DNA of 64,000 nt from an uncultured Thiotrichales bacterium. GTDB taxonomy: Bacteria; Pseudomonadota; Gammaproteobacteria; UWMA-0217. Below, piece by piece: positions 9,970 through 51,409 of the stretch (position 1 is the stretch's first letter; the number at the start of each line of letters is the position of its first letter). The notes beneath the pieces were generated by a model. That model saw only the letters and a list, made by a program, of their open reading frames with translations, had not been told where the DNA came from and did not search any database. A program made the translations under genes and the position numbers. The stretch is from contig CAZUJU010000001.1 in NCBI GenBank assembly GCA_964620675.1, forward strand, positions 51,576 to 115,575, written 5' to 3'.

Positions 9970-10967
9970 ACCGACCGTATATGCCGTTGCCGGGTCCGGT
10001 CCCGGCATCCCTGCAGCTGAACGCCGAGGGGCGACTGCGCCATTTCCTTACGATCGAAGGGTTGAGCGCACCACTGCTGGAGGAGATCCTCAGCGTTTCC
10101 GAATCGTTCACCGCAGTCACTGCGCAACCCGTGAAGAAGGTTCCGCTGTTGCGCGGCAAGACGATTTTCAACCTGTTTTTCGAGCCGAGCACCCGCACCC
10201 GCACGACCTTCGAACTGGCAGCCAAACGTCTCTCGGCCGACGTCATGAACATGAGTATCAGCACCTCCGCAACGACCAAGGGCGAGAGCCTGCTCGACAC
10301 GTTGCGCAATCTCGAGGCCATGCATAGCGATATGTTCATTGTGCGCCACGGCGAAAGCGGCGCCGCGCAATTAATTGCGCGGCATGTCGCCCCGCACATC
10401 AGCGTGATCAATGCCGGCGATGGCCGGCACGCCCACCCGACGCAGGCGATGCTCGACGTCTTCACGATCCGCCGCCGCAAGGGCGCGCTCAATCATCTGA
10501 CGGTCGCGATTGTCGGCGACATCCTGCATTCCCGTGTCGCGCGCTCCCAGATTCATGCCCTCAACGTGCTCGGTATCGGCGAACTCCGCGTCATCGCGCC
10601 GAAAACACTGCTTCCAGCCGAGGTCGAACAGCTGGGGGTCAAGGTCTACCACTCGCTTCAGGCGGGTCTGCGCGATGTCGATGTGGTTATCATGCTACGC
10701 CTTCAAAAAGAACGCATGAGTGGTGCCTTGCTGCCCTCGGAGAACGAGTATTACCGCCTTTACGGTCTGACCGTGGAGCGTCTGGCGTACGCCAAGCCGG
10801 ACGCGATCGTGATGCATCCCGGCCCGGCCAACCGAGGGGTCGAGATCGCTTCGGAGGTCGCCGATGGGCCGCAGTCCGTCATCCTGGAGCAAGTCAGTAA
10901 CGGCCTGGCGGTTCGCATGGCGGTGATGTCTATGTGCCTTGGCGCACAACCGGCGATAAGCCGATGA
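9966..10967 (+). CDS. pyrB: Aspartate carbamoyltransferase catalytic subunit.
   Basis: [19 protein letters not shown] carbamoyl-phosphate binding motif and an HPxQ-type motif ([10 protein letters not shown]). 333 aa. Confidence 0.9.
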
Positions 10968-18974: not shown

Positions 18975-21866
18975 ATGACCGCCCCATCGGAATCCGTTCA
19001 AGCCCCGAGCCGCGAGGTCAAGACCACGACCTGCTACATGTGCGCCTGCCGTTGCGGCATTCGCGTAACGCTGGAGAACGGGGAGGTACGGTACATCGAA
19101 GGGAACCCGGATCATCCGCTAAATCAGGGCGTGATCTGCGCCAAAGGGGCGTCGGGAATCATGAAGCAGTACTCGCCGGCGCGCCTGACCCTGCCGCTGC
19201 GGCGTAGATCTGGCGCCGAACGCGGCAGCGGTGAGTTCGAGGCGGTCAGCTGGGACGAGGCATTCGGCGTGCTTGCGGAACGTCTCGGCAAGATTCGCTT
19301 GACCGACCCGAAACGCTTCGCCCTATTTACCGGGCGTGATCAGATGCAGGCGTTGACCGGTTTGTTTGCGCGCCAGTTTGGCACCCCCAACTACGCCGCC
19401 CACGGCGGATTTTGTTCGGTGAACATGGCAGCCGGGCTGATCTACACCATCGGCGGATCGTTTTGGGAATTCGGCGGTCCGGATCTGGAACGCTCGAAAC
19501 TGTTCCTGATGTTCGGCACCGCGGAGGACCATCACTCGAATCCGCTCAAGGTGCAGATTGCCAAGTTCAAACGCCAAGGCGGGCGCTTTATCTCGATCAA
19601 TCCAGTGCGTACTGGGTATTCGGCCATCGCCGATGAGTGGGTCCCGATTAAGCCGGGTACCGACGGCGCGCTGCTGCTGGCATTGATTCATGAAGTCATC
19701 AAGCAAGGGCTATACGACCGGGAGTTTCTGGTGCGTTACACCAACGCGCCCGAACTGGTCAATCTCGATCCGAAAAGCAGCGAGTTCGGCATGTTTCTCC
19801 GCTTCGAGATCCCGCCCGAGGAAGGCTGCTTCGATCCGCAAAACAAGCTGTGGTGGGATCGCGAGTTGAACCGTCCGATCTCGACCCACACCGAAGGCGC
19901 CGATCCCTATTTGCTTGGCGAGTTTCGCTGGGACGACGGCACGCCGGTGAAACCGTCCTTCCAGTTGCTGAAGGAGCGTGTGGAGCAATACACCCCCGAG
20001 TGGGCCGCGGGTATCAGTGGCGTACCGGCCGAGACGATCCGCCGTCTCGCCCACGAGATGGGCGTTACCGCGCGCGATCAGCAGATCGAGTTGCCGATTG
20101 CGTGGACCGACGCCTGGGGCAAGGAACACAACTCGGTTGTCGGCAATCCGGTGTCGTTTCACGCCATGCGCGGCCTCGCAGCCCATTCCAACGGGTTTCA
20201 CACGATTCGGGCGCTTGGGATTCTGATGACGTTGCTGGGCACGATCGACCGCCCCGGCGGCTTTCGCCACAAGGCGCCGTTTCCGCGCCCGATTCCGCCG
20301 TGCCCGAAGCCGCCGAAAAGTGAGGCCGACGTCGTTCCCGGCGAGGTATTAAACGGCATGCCCCTCGGTTGGCCGGCCGACCCCGACGACCTCTTCGTCA
20401 GCGACGACGGCGAGCCGTTGCGGATCGACAAGGCGTTCTCCTGGGAGTATCCGCTCTCGGTGCATGGCCTGATGCATAACGTTATCACCAATGCCTGGCG
20501 CGGCGATCCGTACAAGATTGACACGCTGCTTCTATTCATGGCGAACATGGCCTGGAATTCGTCGATGAACACAGCGCGTGTGCGCGAGATGTTGACCGAC
20601 AAGGACGAGACGGGCGAGTACAAGATTCCGTTCCTGGTCGTATGCGATACGTTTCAGTCGGAGACCGTTGCGTTTGCCGATCTGGTCTTGCCGGATACGA
20701 CCTACCTCGAACGTTACGACGTGATGTCGATGCTCGATCGACCGATCTCCGAGTATGACGGGCCGGTCGACTCGGTGCGCATTCCGGTTGTCCCGCCGAA
20801 AGGCGAATGCAAACCCTTTCAGGAGGTGCTGATCGAACTGGGTTCGCGCCTCAAACTGCCCGCGTTCACGCGCCCCGATGGATCGCGCAAATTTCGCGAC
20901 TATCGCGATTTCATCATCAACTACGAAAGTGCACCGGGGTCCGGCATTGGTTTCCTGGCGGGCTGGCGCGGCACCGGCGGCGAAAAATATCTGCGCGGCG
21001 AGCCGAATCCGCGGCAATGGGAGATGTACGCAAAAAATAACTGCGTGTTCCACTATGAACTTCCGCGCTCGTATCAGTACATGCGCAACTGGAACCAGGG
21101 TTACCTGCAATGGGCGCAGGATCACGGCATGACCCGCTACGCCGAGCCGATCAACATTCACATCTACTCCGAAGTACTGCAGAAGTTTCGCCTCGCCGCC
21201 GAAGGCAAATCAGACGGACGGCAACCGCCGGAACGCCTTCGCGAGCGGGTGCGGACCTACTTCGATCCACTACCGTTCTACCATGAGCCGCTGGAATCCC
21301 AGCGTATCGATACCCAACAGTATCCGCTCAGCGCGATCACCCAACGGCCGATGGCGATGTATCACTCGTGGGATTCCCAAAATGCGTGGCTGCGCCAGAT
21401 CCATACCCATAACTACCTGTATCTCAATCCGCAGCTCGGCAAGGCGAACGGATTCAAGGACGGCGACTGGGTCTGGATCGAGTCGCCGTGGGGCAAGGTA
21501 CGCTGCATGTGCAGTTTCAGCGAAGCGGTCGAGCCCGGCACGGTCTGGACCTGGAATGCGATCGGCAAGGCCTCCGGCGCGTGGGCGTTGCATCCCAAGG
21601 CCAACGAATCGCAAAAAGGCTTTTTGCTCAATCACGTGATCACCGAGGAGCTTCCGGCCGGTGACGAAGGCACCACGATCTCGAACTCCGATCCGGTCAC
21701 CGGCCAGGCCGGCTGGTACGACGTGCGGGTGCGGGTTTATAAGGCCGAGCCCGGCGAACCCAAGCAGAGCTGGCCACAGTTTGGCGCGCTAAAGCCGTTT
21801 CCTGGGATGGAGAAGCGTCGCGGTAAATGGCAAGCCTACATCGCCGGTAAATTCGGCAGAAAATAG
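18975..21866 (+). CDS. soeA: Molybdopterin (Mo-bisPGD) oxidoreductase catalytic subunit with no Tat signal; SoeA-like cytoplasmic sulfite dehydrogenase large subunit.
   Basis: 963 aa. N-terminal 4Fe-4S Cys motif CYMCACRCG...C immediately after a 17-residue non-signal N-terminus with no RR twin-arginine motif. Molybdopterin oxidoreductase and C-terminal MopB domains. Size matches SoeA (~109 kDa). Confidence 0.6.
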   Translation: MTAPSESVQAPSREVKTTTCYMCACRCGIRVTLENGEVRYIEGNPDHPLNQGVICAKGASGIMKQYSPARLTLPLRRRSGAERGSGEFEAVSWDEAFGVLAERLGKIRLTDPKRFALFTGRDQMQALTGLFARQFGTPNYAAHGGFCSVNMAAGLIYTIGGSFWEFGGPDLERSKLFLMFGTAEDHHSNPLKVQIAKFKRQGGRFISINPVRTGYSAIADEWVPIKPGTDGALLLALIHEVIKQGLYDREFLVRYTNAPELVNLDPKSSEFGMFLRFEIPPEEGCFDPQNKLWWDRELNRPISTHTEGADPYLLGEFRWDDGTPVKPSFQLLKERVEQYTPEWAAGISGVPAETIRRLAHEMGVTARDQQIELPIAWTDAWGKEHNSVVGNPVSFHAMRGLAAHSNGFHTIRALGILMTLLGTIDRPGGFRHKAPFPRPIPPCPKPPKSEADVVPGEVLNGMPLGWPADPDDLFVSDDGEPLRIDKAFSWEYPLSVHGLMHNVITNAWRGDPYKIDTLLLFMANMAWNSSMNTARVREMLTDKDETGEYKIPFLVVCDTFQSETVAFADLVLPDTTYLERYDVMSMLDRPISEYDGPVDSVRIPVVPPKGECKPFQEVLIELGSRLKLPAFTRPDGSRKFRDYRDFIINYESAPGSGIGFLAGWRGTGGEKYLRGEPNPRQWEMYAKNNCVFHYELPRSYQYMRNWNQGYLQWAQDHGMTRYAEPINIHIYSEVLQKFRLAAEGKSDGRQPPERLRERVRTYFDPLPFYHEPLESQRIDTQQYPLSAITQRPMAMYHSWDSQNAWLRQIHTHNYLYLNPQLGKANGFKDGDWVWIESPWGKVRCMCSFSEAVEPGTVWTWNAIGKASGAWALHPKANESQKGFLLNHVITEELPAGDEGTTISNSDPVTGQAGWYDVRVRVYKAEPGEPKQSWPQFGALKPFPGMEKRRGKWQAYIAGKFGRK

Positions 21867-21881
21867 AGAGCGCACGAATCC

Positions 21882-22610
21882 ATGACTCAACTGGCTTTAG
21901 TGATCGATCTGAATGTTTGCGTCGGTTGTCACGCCTGCGTAACCAGCTGCAAGGAGTGGAATACCTCCGGCAGCGCCGGACCGCTGACGGATTTCAATCC
22001 CTACGCGGCCGACCCGACCGGTACGTTTTTCAATCGGGTTCAAACCTTCGAGATTGGCGAGTTCCCGCGGACCGAAACGGTGCACTTTCCGAAAAGCTGC
22101 CTGCACTGCGAAGAACCCCCGTGCGTACCGGTATGCCCCACGGGGGCCAGCTATAAGCGCGCCGAGGACGGCATCGTCCTGGTGGATTACGACAAATGCA
22201 TCGGCTGCAAATATTGTTCGTGGGCCTGCCCGTATGGAGTCCGCGAACTCGACGAGCAGCAGAAGGTCATGAAGAAATGCACGCTGTGCGTCGACCGGCT
22301 CTACGACACCTCCTTGCCAGAGCGCGAGCGCAAGCCCGCTTGCGTACTCGCCTGCCCGACCAGCGCGCGGCTCTACGGCGACGTGCATGATCCCGATTCG
22401 GAGGTTTCGTGCGCAATCCGCGACAACGGCGGCTACCAACTGATGCCGGAGTGGGGGACCCATCCCGCTAACCACTATCTGCCGCGACGCAAGACCCAGA
22501 TCCGCATCCATCCCGACGAACTCGTGCGGGCAGACAATCCGCTCAAGAAGGAAGATCTGCGCAAATCGAGCGTCAGCGACAAGCCGACGCTGGACGATGT
22601 GGCCTGGTAA
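21882..22610 (+). CDS. soeB: Four-cluster 4Fe-4S ferredoxin-type subunit (DmsB/PsrB family), SoeB-like.
   Basis: 242 aa with four CxxCxxCxxxCP-type motifs (CVGCHACVTSC, CLHCEEPPCVPVCP, CIGCKYCSWACP, CTLC...CVLACP) and no signal peptide. 16 bp downstream of the large subunit. Confidence 0.65.
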   Translation: MTQLALVIDLNVCVGCHACVTSCKEWNTSGSAGPLTDFNPYAADPTGTFFNRVQTFEIGEFPRTETVHFPKSCLHCEEPPCVPVCPTGASYKRAEDGIVLVDYDKCIGCKYCSWACPYGVRELDEQQKVMKKCTLCVDRLYDTSLPERERKPACVLACPTSARLYGDVHDPDSEVSCAIRDNGGYQLMPEWGTHPANHYLPRRKTQIRIHPDELVRADNPLKKEDLRKSSVSDKPTLDDVAW

Positions 22611-22631
22611 CGCGTACCCCTCGGAGAACTC

Positions 22632-23615
22632 ATGCACCCCGCTCTGTCCGTCATTCTGCTCACGACCCTGATCGGCGCCGGTCAGGGGCTGTTTCTCGCT
22701 CTGTTTACCGCACAGATCTACGCTTGGGATGGCCTGCTGCCCACCCAAAGCGGACCGTCCTTCTACGGACCCGGCAGCCTGCTCGCGTTGATACTCTTGA
22801 TCGCCGGTCTGATCGCATCGTTCTTCCACCTGGGGCGCCCCGAACGCGCTTGGCGCAGCGCGACGCAGTGGCGGACGTCGTGGCTCTCGCGCGAGGTGAT
22901 CGTATTGCCGATCGCGATGCTCCTGATTCTTGGATTTGGCGCAGCGCACTCTCTGGAGCTTGAGCGGCCCCTGTTCACACTGCCAGGCGGCAAACCGGTC
23001 GACCCTACCCTGATCATCGGGGTGCTGGCCATGCTCGCGGTCCTTGCGCTCTATCTGTGTACCGCGATGATCTATGCCAGTCTGAAATTCTTGCAGGAAT
23101 GGCACAGCGCACTCACGGTGATCAACTATCTGCTACTGGGCGTTGCATCGGGCTTTACCCTGGCCGCCGCCCTCACCGGCGCGACCGGTAACGAGCTTGC
23201 CGGCTTCTTCACGGGTTGGGCAATCGTGCTGACGCTGCTCGCAATGATCGCACGGGTCGCCACACTGATTCGAAATCGCGGCCTGCGTTGCAAGTCCACC
23301 CTGCGCACCGCAATCGGCGTGCGCCATCCGCGGATTCAACAAAAGTCGCAGGGCTTTATGAGCGGCTCATTCAACACCCGGGAGTTCTTTCACGGCAAGC
23401 GTCCGGCGTTTCTCAAGGGTATCAAGTGGACGTTCCTCGTTATGGCCTTTGTTCTGCCGGTCGCGTTGCTGATCGCCGCCTACCTCGGTGTCGCCCTACA
23501 ATACCTGCCACTGCTCGCGTTTGCGGTTCAGTACCTCGGCCTGCTCGCTGAGCGTTGGTACTTTTTCGCGGAAGCCAATCATCCGCAGAATCTGTATTAC
23601 CAGGCGATCGCCTGA
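22632..23615 (+). CDS. soeC: NrfD/PsrC/DmsC-family polytopic membrane anchor, SoeC-like.
   Basis: 327 aa, about 8 predicted TM helices, no heme-binding or other Cys motifs. Completes the A-B-C operon. Confidence 0.6.
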   Translation: MHPALSVILLTTLIGAGQGLFLALFTAQIYAWDGLLPTQSGPSFYGPGSLLALILLIAGLIASFFHLGRPERAWRSATQWRTSWLSREVIVLPIAMLLILGFGAAHSLELERPLFTLPGGKPVDPTLIIGVLAMLAVLALYLCTAMIYASLKFLQEWHSALTVINYLLLGVASGFTLAAALTGATGNELAGFFTGWAIVLTLLAMIARVATLIRNRGLRCKSTLRTAIGVRHPRIQQKSQGFMSGSFNTREFFHGKRPAFLKGIKWTFLVMAFVLPVALLIAAYLGVALQYLPLLAFAVQYLGLLAERWYFFAEANHPQNLYYQAIA

Positions 23616-41119: not shown

Positions 41120-42124
41120 CTAGAATTCCGGGCGTAAGCGCCGGCCCAAGAGATCGGCGACGGCTGCGGCAGGTGAAAGCCCTTCGTATAGGATCCGGTA
41201 CACCTCGGTTGCGATCGGCATTTCAACCGCTTCGCGCAGGGCAATCTGATTGAGCATCTCGGCCGTGACCGCCCCCTCCACGACCTGACCGATCTCGGTG
41301 CGGGCCTGAGCGGCGGATTTCCCCTGTCCGAGCGCGAGGCCGAAGCGCCGATTACGCGATTTGTCATCAGTGCAGGTGAGCACCAAATCCCCCAACCCAG
41401 CCAGCCCCATCATCGTTTCGGTTCGCGCCCCGAGCTGAACACCCAAACGCATCATCTCGGCAAGACCGCGCGTAATGAGCGCCGCGCGGGCATTGGCGCC
41501 GAAGCCGAGGCCGTCCGAAACGCCGGCTGCGATCGCGAGAACGTTCTTTACCGCCCCTCCCAATTGCACGCCGACGACATCGGTGCTGCTGTAAACCCGC
41601 AGATGTTCGCCGTGAAACACCCGCACCAAGTCCGCCGCAAGCGTTTCATCCCGCGCGGCCAACGTCATCGCCGTCGGCAGATTGCGTGCCACCTCAACCG
41701 CAAAGGTCGGACCCGATACGATGCCGAACGCGACATTGGCGCCGAGTGCGCTTGCCGCGACCTCGTGCAAAAAACGCCCACTTCCTTTCTCGAATCCCTT
41801 GGTCGCAGAAACGACCCGGGTTTGCGCGTCGACATACGGTTGCAACGCATGCAGTACGTTTGTGAAGCCCTCGCTCGGCACCACAATAACCCAGTACGGC
41901 GAAAACTGCGCGGCTTGCGCGAGGTCCGCTGTCAGACCAATTTCGGCGGGTATAAGGACGTTGGGAAGATAGCGCGGATTGGCGCCCGCAGCCCGCATCT
42001 CGTCGATTTGAGCGGCGTCATGTCCCCAGAGCAACACCTCAAAGCCATTGCGCCGAATCTGGAGCGCGAGCGCAGTGCCCCACGCCCCGGCGCCAAACAC
42101 CGCGACTCGCGCGGTTGCATTCAT
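41120..42124 (-). CDS. gpsA: NAD(P)H-dependent glycerol-3-phosphate dehydrogenase.
   Basis: VAVFGAGAWGTALAL Rossmann motif. 334 aa. Confidence 0.9.
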   Translation of the reverse strand: MNATARVAVFGAGAWGTALALQIRRNGFEVLLWGHDAAQIDEMRAAGANPRYLPNVLIPAEIGLTADLAQAAQFSPYWVIVVPSEGFTNVLHALQPYVDAQTRVVSATKGFEKGSGRFLHEVAASALGANVAFGIVSGPTFAVEVARNLPTAMTLAARDETLAADLVRVFHGEHLRVYSSTDVVGVQLGGAVKNVLAIAAGVSDGLGFGANARAALITRGLAEMMRLGVQLGARTETMMGLAGLGDLVLTCTDDKSRNRRFGLALGQGKSAAQARTEIGQVVEGAVTAEMLNQIALREAVEMPIATEVYRILYEGLSPAAAVADLLGRRLRPEF

Positions 42125-42159
42125 CCCGGCTGGGTGTCCCATAACAGCCGAAGCCGCAC

Positions 42160-42648
42160 TCAGTGGGACGTCGATTCGGCGGCAGCCGCGTTCTCCGTGG
42201 CTTTTTGGCGTTCGATCAAGTGCTGTTGGTACAACGCATCGAAGTTGATCGGCGCAAGTAACATTTGCGGAAAGCCGCCCTTCACCACGAGATCACTGAT
42301 CGCTTCGCGCGCGAACGGATACAGGATATTTGGGCAATAGCTGCCTAGCAGTTGGGCCAACTGATCGTCAGGATACCCTGAGATGCTGAATATCCCCGAT
42401 TGCTTGAGTTCCACCAGATAGGCCGTTTCGTCTTCCGATTTGACCGTAACGGTGAGATTGAGATCCACCTCGTAGACGCGTTCGGCGAGACGCTTGAACG
42501 CCGAGTTAAGATCCACGTTGGTGGCGGGTTTGAACGCCTTGGTGAAGATCGCCGGTGCGTTAGGCGTCTCCCAGGAAACGTCCTTCAGATAAACGCGCTG
42601 GATCTCGAAAACGACTTGCGGTTGCTGATCTTGGGCGGCATCGGCCAT
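42160..42648 (-). CDS. secB: Protein-export chaperone SecB.
   Basis: FEIQRVYLKDVSWETPNAP aligns with E. coli FQIQRIYTKDISFEAPNAP. ATG at 42648 with an AAGGA RBS. Confidence 0.85.
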   Translation of the reverse strand: MADAAQDQQPQVVFEIQRVYLKDVSWETPNAPAIFTKAFKPATNVDLNSAFKRLAERVYEVDLNLTVTVKSEDETAYLVELKQSGIFSISGYPDDQLAQLLGSYCPNILYPFAREAISDLVVKGGFPQMLLAPINFDALYQQHLIERQKATENAAAAESTSH

Positions 42649-42677
42649 AGTGAATTCCTTAGCTTTCGTGGTGTTAG

Positions 42678-43118
42678 TCAATTGATGTACTGGCGCAGCC
42701 ACGCCTTGAGCTGGGTAACGTTCATTGCCCCAGACATGCGCGATCGCTCCGCGCCGTTTTCGAACAGGATCAACGTTGGAATGCTACGGATCCCAAACGG
42801 CTCAGCGGCCAACGGGTGAGCGTCGGTATTTACCTTGGCAAAGCGCAGGCCTGGCTCTAGATCACGCGCCGCTTGCGCGAACGCTGGCGCCATCATCTTA
42901 CAGGGACCACACCAAGGCGCCCAGAAATCGACGACCAAAGGTATGCGATCGCGCTCAATATGTCGCACCAAGCGGTTCGAATCGAGTTCCAGCGGATTTC
43001 CGTTAAACAGGGGCTGGTGACAGGATCCGCAACGTGCATCATCGTTGAGCCGTTGCTTGGGCACGCGGTTGGTTTTACCGCACTCGGGACAGACGATTTC
43101 AAGCGAAGCTTGCGCCAC
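42678..43118 (-). CDS. trxC: Thioredoxin 2 (TrxC-type, with N-terminal zinc-finger).
   Basis: CPECGKTNRVP...CGSCHQ zinc-binding pair followed by WAPWCGPCK. Confidence 0.8.
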   Translation of the reverse strand: MAQASLEIVCPECGKTNRVPKQRLNDDARCGSCHQPLFNGNPLELDSNRLVRHIERDRIPLVVDFWAPWCGPCKMMAPAFAQAARDLEPGLRFAKVNTDAHPLAAEPFGIRSIPTLILFENGAERSRMSGAMNVTQLKAWLRQYIN

Positions 43119-43123
43119 GGTGT

Positions 43124-43381
43124 TTAGCCCTCAAGCAGCGGATCCAACTTTCCCGCTCGATCGAGTGCCGCTAAATCGTCGTATCCACCGACGTGAAAGT
43201 CGCCGATAAAAATCTGCGGCACGGTAACGCGACCAGAGCGTTGAACCATCAGCTCGCCCTGAGCAGGGTCACGATCGACGCGGACTTCTTCATAGCCCGC
43301 GTTTTTGCGCTGCAACAACTGCTTGGCCCAAATGCAATAGGGGCAAAACGCCGAGGTGTAAATCGTGATCTTGCCGGCCAC
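43124..43381 (-). CDS. grxC: Glutaredoxin 3.
   Basis: ITIYTSAFCPYCIWAKQLL (CPYC). A GTG start at 43381 gives 85 aa; the track M at 43420 overlaps the rhodanese gene. Confidence 0.8.
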   Translation of the reverse strand: MAGKITIYTSAFCPYCIWAKQLLQRKNAGYEEVRVDRDPAQGELMVQRSGRVTVPQIFIGDFHVGGYDDLAALDRAGKLDPLLEG

Positions 43382-43383
43382 TG

Positions 43384-43809
43384 TTATTTCTTCTTGAGCG
43401 GTAGGTTTTCCGACTGCCAAGCAACGACGCCGCCGCGGAGGTTGTAAACATCTTCGAACCCCTGTTTTTTCAACAGGCTACAAGCCAATTGAGAGCGGTT
43501 CCCGGAGCGACAAAATGCCACTACCTTTTTACCTTTGAACTTGTCCAGCTCACCCATGCGAGACTTGAGTAGGCTCATCGGGAGGTGTTTGGCGCCATTA
43601 ATCGTGCCCTGACCGACCTCGCTGTCTTCGCGGACATCGAGCAAAAACGCCGCATCGCCGTTCATCAACCGAACCGTCTCTTGCGGTGAGATCTCTTTGA
43701 AATTACGCGTTAAACGCCGGATCTCAGTCCACAGTGTCAGCGCTAGCAGCGCAAAAAAACCCAACACGAGAAACAGATGTTTCTCCGCGAAAACGATATA
43801 TTCCTGCAT
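43384..43809 (-). CDS. yibN: Membrane-anchored rhodanese-domain protein (YibN-like).
   Basis: N-terminal TM helix then a rhodanese fold with the active-site CRSGNRS loop. 141 aa. Confidence 0.75.
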   Translation of the reverse strand: MQEYIVFAEKHLFLVLGFFALLALTLWTEIRRLTRNFKEISPQETVRLMNGDAAFLLDVREDSEVGQGTINGAKHLPMSLLKSRMGELDKFKGKKVVAFCRSGNRSQLACSLLKKQGFEDVYNLRGGVVAWQSENLPLKKK

Positions 43810-43852
43810 CGAAGAACCCTTGATCGCAACAGAAGTGCGCGATGCGCCCCGA

Positions 43853-44185
43853 TCAGGTGCAGAACACCTCTTGCATCATATCAATCAGACGCAACGTGCG
43901 CGCATCGCCGACTCGGTAGTATACCTTGTTTGCATCCTTGCGAGCCGCGAGAATACCCTTGTCACGCAAAATGGCGAGATGTTGGGAGATGTTGCTCTGC
44001 GAGGTACCGACACATTCGACGATATCTTGCACGCTAACTTCACGATCGCCCAGCGTGCAAAGGATCCGCAACCGCAGTGGGTGCGACATGGCTTTCAAGG
44101 AACGCGAGGCACGTTCGATGTCTTCTTCCCGCTTCATGAGTTCGGAGGCACGAAACCCGACGCACCCGGTTTTTTGGTCGATCAA
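43853..44185 (-). CDS. ArsR/SmtB-family transcriptional regulator, BigR/SqrR-like by Cys spacing.
   Basis: HTH core HPLRLRILCTL...VQDIVECVGTSQSNISQHLAILRDKGIL. Two Cys (ILCTL and C-terminal EVFCT) are 66 residues apart. Proposed TTG start at 44185 (GAGGG RBS, 110 aa); alternative ATG at 44137 (94 aa). The track start at 44314 would run through the operator palindrome. Confidence 0.65.
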   Translation of the reverse strand: MIDQKTGCVGFRASELMKREEDIERASRSLKAMSHPLRLRILCTLGDREVSVQDIVECVGTSQSNISQHLAILRDKGILAARKDANKVYYRVGDARTLRLIDMMQEVFCT

Positions 44186-44207
44186 TGCGAGACCCTCATT
44201 TTGTATT

Positions 44208-44221
44208 TTACTATATAGTAA
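44208..44221. promoter_or_regulatory. Perfect 14-bp AT-rich palindrome TTACTATATAGTAA in the divergent arsR-like/envC intergenic region; candidate operator.
   Basis: Seen directly. About 23 bp upstream of the proposed regulator start. Confidence 0.4.
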
Positions 44222-44280
44222 TATTACATCCAAACTGGCGGAATGAATAGACGATTGGTTTTTTTTCAGTTGCGTGTCAT

Positions 44281-45462
44281 ATGAACCGTCCGAACGCGAT
44301 CCGAATTTGGGCACTGCGACCGGGCAAGCAGCGAAAACTCCTCGCGATTTGCGTGGCGTTGGCTTGCGTAGCGAGCCCCGCGTTTGCTGCGGAGGATGGC
44401 AAGATGTCGAACATCAAGAAAGAGCTCGACTCGATCGTCGAAAAGTTGCGTTCGCTCAAAGGCCAACAATCATCGCAGCAAAGTGACCTCGGCAAGCGCG
44501 AGGCCGCCGTAGTCGCCATCGATCGTGAGATCTCGCAAACCGTGCGCCAATTGCGGACTTTGGAACGCGACATCGCGAAGCAGCAAGCTGAGCTCAAGCG
44601 TCTGGAAAGTCAGCGCGCGGCGCGCGCGACCGAAATCGATCGCCATAGGACTCTGCTCGGTAATCATCTAACGGCTTTGTTCCAGTCGGGACAACACGTG
44701 CAGTGGCATGCGGCGCTTGAACCACAACGATTGAACGAGTTTTTGCGAACACAGACCAACCTGCACTATCTCCAAAGTGCGCGTGAGCGCAAGGTGGAGC
44801 AATTGCGCAATCAAACCACCGAACTCGACCGTATCGCACGGGAAATCCAGGTGACTCGCGAGGCTTTGGCGCGCGAGCAAGTAACACTTCGCGGGCAACA
44901 GGAAACCTTCAAGGCCCAAAAGAAGCAGCAAACCCAGGTAGTCGCCGAACTCAAGCGTGAGCTAGGCACGACTCAGGCCAATATCAATCAACTCAATACC
45001 GATCGTCAGGCGCTCAACGATTTGCTCAAACGCTTGCGCGCAGAAGCCCAAAAGCGACAAGCAGACGGCAGGGGATCCCACTTCGACGGAGATTCGCCCT
45101 TCGCCAAGTTAAGGGGCAAGCTACCTTGGCCCGCCAAGGGTAAATTGGTGCAATACGCCAGTGGGGTAAAAATTCAGGCTGCCGAGGGTACGGAAGTTCG
45201 CGCGATCGGTGAAGGCGAGGTGGTGTTTTCCGATTGGATGCGCGGCCTCGGTTGGCTCGCAATCGTCAATCACGGGTCCGGTTACCTCTCGCTCTACGGC
45301 CACAATGAAGCGCTTTTGGTCAAGCAGGGCGAGCGGGTCAAGGCCAGCGCGGTTATCGCGACAGCCGGGCGAAGTGGTGGTCAGTCCGAGTCCGGGGTTT
45401 ACTTTGAACTGCGGGAAAACACAAAGGCGCTCGATCCCTTTGTTTGGTGCGTACGCGGCTAG
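44281..45462 (+). CDS. envC: Murein hydrolase activator EnvC (coiled-coil + LytM/M23 domain).
   Basis: Signal peptide, long Q/E/R/L-rich coiled coil, and a C-terminal degenerate M23 domain (GLGWLAIVNHGSGYLSLYGHN). Confidence 0.8.
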   Translation: MNRPNAIRIWALRPGKQRKLLAICVALACVASPAFAAEDGKMSNIKKELDSIVEKLRSLKGQQSSQQSDLGKREAAVVAIDREISQTVRQLRTLERDIAKQQAELKRLESQRAARATEIDRHRTLLGNHLTALFQSGQHVQWHAALEPQRLNEFLRTQTNLHYLQSARERKVEQLRNQTTELDRIAREIQVTREALAREQVTLRGQQETFKAQKKQQTQVVAELKRELGTTQANINQLNTDRQALNDLLKRLRAEAQKRQADGRGSHFDGDSPFAKLRGKLPWPAKGKLVQYASGVKIQAAEGTEVRAIGEGEVVFSDWMRGLGWLAIVNHGSGYLSLYGHNEALLVKQGERVKASAVIATAGRSGGQSESGVYFELRENTKALDPFVWCVRG

Positions 45463-51382: not shown

Positions 51383-51409
51383 AAAAAAAGGCAGCGATCG
51401 CTGCCTTTT
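51383..51409 (-). terminator. Rho-independent terminator after atpC (palindromic, potentially bidirectional).
   Basis: AAAAAAA-GGCAGCGATCGCTGCC-TTTT. On the minus strand the hairpin is followed by TTTTTTTATTTTT. Confidence 0.75.

Follow-up and report, generated by a model that had tools for sequence, protein, structure and literature searches.

The window analysed here is a 64,000-nucleotide (nt) stretch of contig CAZUJU010000001.1 (assembly GCA_964620675.1) from an uncultured Thiotrichales bacterium, and its positions 43853-44280 cover, on the minus strand, the gene of a small ArsR/SmtB-family regulator together with the whole intergenic region as far as the divergent gene envC. The regulator heads a same-strand string of genes for a rhodanese (yibN), a glutaredoxin (grxC), a thioredoxin (trxC), SecB and GpsA. 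Its sequence and predicted structure make it look like a dithiol-switch ArsR protein of the BigR/SqrR/HlyU/YgaV type, within an uncharacterised subfamily of a known sensor class. The coding sequence and its translation signal lie at the following positions.

43853..44185, minus strand: coding sequence of the ArsR/SmtB-family winged-helix regulator, 110 residues from a TTG start, stop codon included (open reading frame and translation, Pfam HTH_5)
44193..44197, minus strand: Shine-Dalgarno-like GAGGG, 7 nt upstream of the regulator TTG (read from the sequence)

The open reading frame ends with a stop codon at 43853-43855 and has two candidate starts, a TTG at 44185-44183 that gives 110 residues and an ATG at 44137 that gives the conserved 94-residue core and has no Shine-Dalgarno sequence in front of it. 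When the window is aligned with five close relatives, the TTG proves invariant and is preceded in most of them by a GAGG-like motif (GAGGG is kept in loci L161 and L001, with the degenerate forms GGAG, AGAGG and GAGGA in L165, L162 and L081), and the 110-residue product is exactly the form in an NCBI record; the TTG is therefore the likely start and its numbering is adopted. On this numbering the regulator has cysteines only at positions 8, 43, 58 and 109 and histidines only at 35 and 69, and the two cysteines that the earlier note had read as lying 66 residues apart, in ILCTL and EVFCT and at about 43 and 109, are indeed Cys43 and Cys109. Cys8 (codon 44162-44164) lies in the disordered N-terminal extension, where the surrounding residues read KTGCVG in the window and, among the closest relatives, LCG or SCS; this cysteine is restricted to the nearest clade of the window (8 of 23 aligned sequences) and is paired by HMMER with the non-essential N-terminal Cys of SqrR.

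The regulator contains a Pfam HTH_5 domain (PF01022, ArsR/SmtB; 5.6e-12). In its AlphaFold model (mean predicted local distance difference test score 73, and 77-89 in the core), helices at residues 20-33, 36-45, 52-59 and 63-75, strands at 79-84 and 87-92 and a last helix at 95-108 follow the canonical α1-α2-α3-α4-β1-β2-α5 order of the ArsR fold, in keeping with the winged-helix protein first proposed; residues 1-17 are disordered, Cys43 lies within α2 and Cys109 comes right after α5. The first matches of this model in Foldseek are HlyU, BigR, NolR, YgaV and SqrR (template modelling (TM) scores 0.7-0.95), and there are 77 structural matches in the PDB at E ≤ 1e-3, the 50 listed all being ArsR-family chains. 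A sequence search of the PDB likewise returned BigR (1.6e-17), YgaV, two HlyU entries and SqrR at the top. Identity to BigR, SqrR, HlyU and YgaV is 33-38%, and gapless HMMER alignments place Cys43 and Cys109 on the sensing cysteines of all four, as had been claimed for BigR and SqrR, with Cys58 falling on a non-Cys residue. The sequence has no CXC motif in α3, no α3N ligand set and no His/Asp/Glu cluster in α5, and hence no metal site, nor does it have the proximal α3 Cys pair of RexT.

The cluster-4 ArsR persulfide sensors described by the Giedroc and Capdevila groups, among them BigR, SqrR, HlyU, YgaV, PigS and SoxR, are defined by an α2/α5 Cys pair and an intraprotomer polysulfide bridge, and are often encoded near rhodanese genes (PMC10509353). 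The regulator has these α2/α5 Cys columns (C42/C108 in BigR), no metal site and a rhodanese neighbour; edges in the published cluster-4 network stand at about 40% identity or more, against 33-38% between the regulator and the solved members. Orthology to BigR was ruled out by 33% identity, by a score of 78.9 bits against the cutoff of 155 of the NCBIfam BigR equivalog model NF040642, and by the lack of a downstream blh/persulfide dioxygenase (pdo) gene or TauE-type exporter, and orthology to SqrR, or a SqrR-type regulon, by 37% identity and the lack of an ATTC-N8-GAAT box at the promoter. The regulator hence belongs to a distinct subfamily and is the orthologue of no characterised member, so that the description 'BigR/SqrR-like' in the earlier note holds for the Cys columns and the sensor class, and fails for orthology.

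More than 8000 database proteins match the regulator, the top 120 being 84-99% identical, and relatives are present in at least 595 species (one genome per species); the best 80 of these are all from Gammaproteobacteria. The carriers are mostly sulfur-oxidising lineages, and those named include Thiothrix lacustris, Guyparkeria hydrothermalis, Ectothiorhodospira shaposhnikovii, Thioalkalivibrio, Cocleimonas, Sulfuriflexus, Thiohalobacter and Competibacteraceae. The nearest relative, L161, a contig from a stromatolite metagenome, shares the gene order of the window, and its regulator is 99% identical. Among the distinct orthologue core sequences, Cys43 is present in 144/144 and Cys109 in 143/143, Cys58 is found in 10/144, and the recognition helix GTSQSNISQHLAILRDKGIL is invariant across the 144. 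Across 80 genome loci (L001-L080) the median identity to the window is 86% for the regulator, and 44% for the rhodanese, 55% for SecB, 52% for GpsA, 62% for CtpA and 29% for EnvC; these loci were picked by regulator similarity, which bears on the contrast, but the difference from neighbours in the same genomes is large despite this selection and indicates that the regulator is under unusually strong constraint. Below this close set the family grades from 86% down to 40% identity into other ArsR proteins, the majority of them with the Cys pair retained, and the subfamily is therefore likely to be linked to the published cluster 4 through intermediates.

Three distant relatives (P0180, P0211 and P0136; 46-63% identity) have lost one sensing Cys, with Ala for the α2 Cys or Tyr for the C-terminal Cys, and may be natural non-sensing variants. 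Another database protein of 929 residues (P0138) carries a 72%-identical copy of the regulator at its C-terminus (residues 830-928), either through gene fusion or as a gene-calling artefact. A full-text literature search found no description of a yibN-linked ArsR subfamily, which does not prove that none exists.

The intergenic region between the regulator and envC is 95 nt long, with a G+C content of 35% in a window of 59%, and holds the following features.

44208..44221, no strand assigned: perfect 14-base-pair (bp) palindrome TTACTATATAGTAA, candidate operator core, with a TATAGT −10-like hexamer (sequence read)
44202..44228, minus strand: 27-nt block TGTAATATTACTATATAGTAAAATACA, identical in L161, with diverged flanks (alignment)
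44218..44227, minus strand: second palindrome GTAATATTAC, overlapping the first and inside the 27-nt block (sequence)
44209..44223, minus strand: local copy TATTACTATATAGTA of the family box TATTATTGTATAATG, 11/15 to the strict consensus
44205..44233, minus strand: candidate σ70 promoter TTGGAT-17 nt-TAAAAT enclosing the palindrome (read from the sequence; weak match)

The chance of a perfect palindrome of at least 14 bp within the 95 nt is about 0.007, and the window as a whole contains 11 such palindromes against 7.8 ± 2.5 expected from first-order Markov simulations; comparative evidence weighs more than these statistics. In a nucleotide alignment of the intergenic region with 160 related loci, L161 alone aligns. 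Across the family, an AT-rich box with the consensus TATTATTGTATAAT (longer form gGt.TATTATTGTATaaTgttTTa.TaATaaa) is found upstream of the regulator. Matches of at least 12/15 to TATTATTGTATAATG occur in 84/158 upstream regions, compared with 3/149 shuffled sequences and 0/146 coding controls, and a position weight matrix (PWM) of the box, run over 813 kb of loci on both strands, has 116 of its 117 matches upstream of the regulator and in regulator orientation. The copy in the window deviates at one strongly conserved, high-information position only (G8 to A), and the best match in the whole 64 kb to a PWM built without the window is at 44194-44229 on the minus strand, on the palindrome itself. 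The family box contains a dyad centred on the conserved G (ATTAT-TGT-ATAAT) that is 64% complementary, against a null maximum of 37%, and a second, weaker dyad (53%) centred 1.5 bp further on, of which the palindrome of the window is, by its sequence, a perfected version. By this comparison the upstream element is real as a conserved box, and its perfect symmetry is lineage-specific. Of the perfect palindromic operator that had been proposed, the palindrome at 44208-44221 survives, occurring once in the window and within a conserved box; conservation of the exact palindrome extends to L161 and no further, the sequence at the equivalent place being different in other close relatives (e.g. TGGCGTTAGTATTAACGCCA in L001).

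Scans for other sites and motifs gave mostly negative results. The consensus σ70 scan called no promoter on the regulator strand, so that the TTGGAT-17-TAAAAT proposal, whose −35 element matches at 3/6 positions, is weak. The SqrR-type ATTC-N8-GAAT motif, with up to one mismatch, has no match in 44186-44280 and 16 elsewhere in the window, below the chance expectation of 26.8. Likeness of the box to Fur, Zur or CRP sites was dropped by eye (matches of 8/19 or worse, or half-sites missing). No copy of TTACTATATAGTAA with up to three mismatches occurs elsewhere in the 64-kb window, and degenerate-box and PWM scans of the 64 kb, the Soe-like operon included, found no second box beyond the regulator promoter; the link to sulfur-oxidation genes suggested in the earlier note is therefore unsupported in the window. 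The Soe-like genes themselves (18975-23615) encode a 963-residue molybdopterin oxidoreductase without a twin-arginine translocation (Tat) signal, a 4Fe-4S subunit and a DmsC-type membrane anchor, a set consistent with a cytoplasm-facing SoeABC-like sulfite dehydrogenase; their NCBIfam matches are below the curated cutoffs for subunits A and B, and there is none for the anchor.

Other palindromes were seen in the related loci and in the window. In 22 related loci (L070:3785-3803 and 21 others) a second conserved palindrome, TTAGAY-N3-DTCTAA (e.g. AATTAGACTAAGTCTAATT), lies 185-284 nt upstream of the regulator core and shares AGACTAA with the Vibrio cholerae HlyU operator; in L070, the single locus in which the genes were examined, it falls between gpmI and the regulator, some 40-60 nt upstream of gpmI, which is divergent. 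The window lacks the palindrome TTAGAC-N3-GTCTAA of these loci and has no gpmI at that position. Of the perfect palindromes in the window, the longest two are GCCGCGCAATTAATTGCGCGGC (22 bp, 10362-10383) and AAAAGGCAGCGATCGCTGCCTTTT (24 bp, 51386-51409), the latter flanked by A and T runs and resembling a bidirectional terminator.

The genes on either side of the regulator are as follows.

43384..43809, minus strand: YibN-like membrane-anchored single-domain rhodanese (Pfam Rhodanese 6.2e-18)
43124..43420, minus strand: glutaredoxin 3, grxC (TIGR02181, 117 bits, cutoff 90)
42678..43118, minus strand: thioredoxin 2 with an N-terminal Zn ribbon, trxC (NF008229, 146 bits, cutoff 125; PF21352)
42160..42702, minus strand: secB (PF02556, 5.4e-55)
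41120..42142, minus strand: gpsA, last gene of the same-strand string (open reading frame; tblastn synteny; Pfam families of the L161 orthologue)
44281..45462, plus strand: envC (M23 peptidase activator), the divergent neighbour that shares the 95-nt intergenic region with the regulator (PF01551; synteny)

The placement of the regulator directly upstream of a yibN rhodanese-grxC-trxC module, as described in the earlier note, is borne out by gene order and profile matches. The rhodanese has an N-terminal hydrophobic segment (LFLVLGFFALLALTLW), a Rhodanese domain at residues 41-133 and the active-site loop CRSGNRS, and this architecture of an N-terminal anchor and a single rhodanese domain, followed in gene order by grxC, secB and gpsA, is that of a YibN-type operon. 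The longest grxC reading frame opens with a TTG at 43420 and has 37 nt in common with the end of the rhodanese gene; since the L161 orthologue is called at 85 residues, translation probably begins at a GTG near 43381, just past the rhodanese stop. The 43-nt gap between regulator and rhodanese contains no terminator-like feature and folds no more stably than shuffled sequence, and no Rfam family was found in 43700-44400. In all 71 loci with enough flank the rhodanese gene is directly downstream of the regulator on the same strand, accompanied further downstream by gpsA (71/71), secB (69/71), grxC (37/71) and trxC (23/71); envC-ctpA is divergent upstream of the regulator in related loci, with gpmI inserted between in about half. 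In Escherichia coli, yibN-grxC-secB-gpsA is a known operon with no such regulator ahead of it (PMC11997395). The simplest reading is that in these bacteria an ancestral housekeeping string gained a redox sensor at its head and, in some lineages, trxC as well.

Among characterised systems, BigR of Xylella fastidiosa and Agrobacterium tumefaciens shares the ArsR winged-helix fold and the α2/α5 Cys columns with their 66-residue spacing, is the best sequence match among solved structures and, like the regulator here, heads its operon; BigR controls that operon from an operator over the −10 region (PMC5823870). It differs, beyond its 33% identity and the NF040642 cutoff, in its cargo, which is blh (a rhodanese-like/persulfide dioxygenase fusion, DUF442-ETHE1) and a TauE-type sulfite exporter, whereas here it is yibN-grxC-trxC-secB-gpsA. 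SqrR of Rhodobacter capsulatus has the Cys pair C41/C107 and an extra N-terminal Cys, controls a rhodanese and is reset by TrxC (PMC9995734, PMC10044876). However, SqrR is 37% identical, and its box has no counterpart at the promoter; it acts as a global regulator, and its gene lies away from trxC, whereas sensor, rhodanese, glutaredoxin and TrxC share one gene string here. HlyU of V. cholerae and V. vulnificus, which has a persulfide-specific tetrasulfide switch (PMC10509353), is the best structural match and has the most similar recognition helix and AT-rich target DNA, but it activates virulence genes by counteracting H-NS, has no link to a rhodanese operon and is 37% identical.

Highest in identity among the characterised relatives (38%) is YgaV of the E. 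coli ygaVP operon, an ArsR protein with the same Cys pair that is encoded directly upstream of the membrane-anchored rhodanese YgaP (PMC9774250); the partner rhodanese here is instead YibN-like, with an N-terminal anchor, and sits in a grxC-secB-gpsA context that in E. coli is without such a regulator. Functionally, the system looks like a YgaV-YgaP-type sensor and membrane rhodanese merged with the yibN-grxC-secB-gpsA string and TrxC. SoxR and sHdrR of Hyphomicrobium denitrificans and Paracoccus are also cluster-4-type repressors of sulfur oxidisers that respond to sulfane sulfur through the same Cys pair (PMC10451225, PMC12423496), but they control sox and shdr sulfur-oxidation genes, whereas no box was found near the Soe-like genes of the window.

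The reading that we consider probable, though far from assured, is that of an autoregulated thiol/persulfide-sensing repressor of a regulator-yibN-grxC-trxC-secB-gpsA operon, which would itself encode the enzymes likely to reset the sensor. In the reduced state, a homodimer would occupy the AT-rich box overlapping the −10 element of its own promoter (44202-44228) and repress the operon from the regulator gene through to gpsA. When cytoplasmic sulfane sulfur (persulfides or polysulfides) rises, Cys43 and Cys109 would become joined by a di- to tetrasulfide bridge within one protomer, and the bridge would distort the winged-helix domains, bring the repressor off the DNA and derepress the operon. 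The induced rhodanese, glutaredoxin and thioredoxin-2 would then clear the sulfane sulfur and return the sensor to its reduced form, so that the circuit closes in a negative feedback loop. The re-reduction step is proposed by analogy with R. capsulatus, where SqrR cannot resume repression without TrxC, which reduces its polysulfide link (PMC10044876), and where loss of the SqrR-regulated rhodanese prolongs induction, identifying that rhodanese as an off-switch (PMC9995734). Of the sulfide/persulfide-responsive repressor of a thiol-redox operon envisaged in the earlier note, the Cys pair and the operon context stand as observed, and the persulfide response and the repression are predicted from them.

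Several observations weigh against this autoregulated persulfide-sensing repressor. All characterised sensors are less than 40% identical to the regulator, and the score against the BigR equivalog is below cutoff. The PWM score of the box in the window (−3.0) is reached by 5/20 shuffled windows, and no second box was found in the 64 kb. The family box is orientation-specific and has a TATAAT-like hexamer, and could therefore be a promoter element only. The operon in the window has no gene for a sulfide-oxidising enzyme (sqr or pdo), grxC and trxC are missing from many orthologous loci, and the operon genes are largely those of an E. coli housekeeping operon that does without such a regulator.

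The alternative that survives best, unlikely but a serious contender, concerns the box: palindrome and box would be core promoter only (a −10 element with a flanking A/T tract) or the site of another AT-binding protein, with the real operator elsewhere, possibly outside the locus. A perfect TATAAT inside a strictly orientation-specific box is what such a promoter would show, and the best dyad of the box is just 64% complementary, the exact palindrome is confined to one lineage and the copy in the window is not significant by PWM score alone. However, both dyads exceed the maximum of the null, and conservation reaches about 9 nt upstream of the hexamer (TATTATTG) in lineages that share only about 50-55% identity in SecB and GpsA. 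With a recognition helix that does not vary, the regulator would moreover be expected to have a conserved operator. Autoregulation is the usual behaviour of ArsR-family proteins encoded at the head of an operon, which also counts against this alternative. The hexamer itself fits both views: it leaves the promoter-only explanation possible, yet agrees with the binding of BigR precisely to the −10 region of its own operon (PMC5823870).

A second alternative, which we regard as quite unlikely, keeps the same class of regulator and the same autoregulated operon and changes the signal: the regulator would respond to general thiol oxidation (disulfide stress, H2O2 or electrophiles), with a plain Cys43-Cys109 disulfide switching on a glutaredoxin/thioredoxin repair module. 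The products of grxC and trxC are classical disulfide reductants, the lack of sqr and pdo from the operon would suit such a role, and BigR was first described as a disulfide switch, its cysteines being sulfenylated and glutathionylated in vitro (PMC5823870). On the other hand, the cluster-4 members that have been tested (SqrR, HlyU and SoxR) react with persulfides and not with H2O2 or oxidised glutathione (PMC10509353, PMC10451225), and the invariant partner of the regulator is the rhodanese, found in every locus with enough flank, rather than glutaredoxin (37/71) or thioredoxin (23/71). That the carriers belong mostly to sulfur-oxidising lineages also speaks for sulfane sulfur as the signal.

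It is very improbable that the regulator works in the manner of HlyU, activating or relieving silencing by driving a nucleoid protein off AT-rich DNA, instead of repressing. HlyU heads the structural matches (TM 0.80/0.95) and has, in SQSALSQHLAWLR, the recognition helix most like that of the regulator (SQSNISQHLAILR), and the target region is strongly AT-rich in a genome of 59% G+C; but the box lies at or over the −10 region near the start codon, where repressor sites are placed, the regulator is the first gene of the operon it would control, and repressors make up most of cluster 4 (PMC10509353). A metal- or metalloid-sensing ArsR/SmtB repressor, for which the NCBIfam 'metalloregulator ArsR/SmtB' subfamily match speaks (83.9 bits, cutoff 55), is scarcely credible, given that there is no α3 CXC and no α5 or α3N ligand, that the only histidines are H35, which is structural, and H69, in the recognition helix, that no transporter or ars gene lies near the regulator in the window, and that the nearest characterised relatives are all non-metal sensors.

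Returning to the persulfide-sensing repressor, a bolder form of this reading, which we hold to be improbable, is a self-contained sense-and-reset circuit specific to sulfur-oxidising Gammaproteobacteria, in which the sensor would be co-transcribed with the TrxC, glutaredoxin and YibN-type rhodanese that strip its bridge. Their shared transcript would also link the cytoplasmic load of sulfane sulfur to the export of proteins and the synthesis of membrane lipids (SecB, GpsA and YibN as a partner of YidC). If such a circuit were true, the conservation of the regulator, 86% against about 52-55% for SecB and GpsA, would reflect several simultaneous partners. The secB/gpsA link may be inherited gene order only, since E. 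coli has the same string without the regulator.

What is known here is the sensor class, so that the existence of a further member would not surprise a specialist; what is new is an uncharacterised subfamily, of interest for the very high conservation of the regulator, for its mostly sulfur-oxidising carriers and for a sensor co-encoded with its probable reset enzymes. Work on persulfide-sensing ArsR regulators has dealt with a small number of heterotrophs, phototrophs and pathogens, and much less is known of how dedicated sulfur-oxidising Gammaproteobacteria sense cytoplasmic sulfane sulfur. With hundreds of such species, a fixed gene neighbourhood and a recognisable upstream box, the subfamily is a well-defined candidate for this sensor, and because the sensor adjoins both TrxC and a rhodanese, the two types of SqrR off-switch in Rhodobacter, the feedback model is directly testable. 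If the secB/gpsA link is functional, sulfur stress would in these bacteria be tied to envelope biogenesis.

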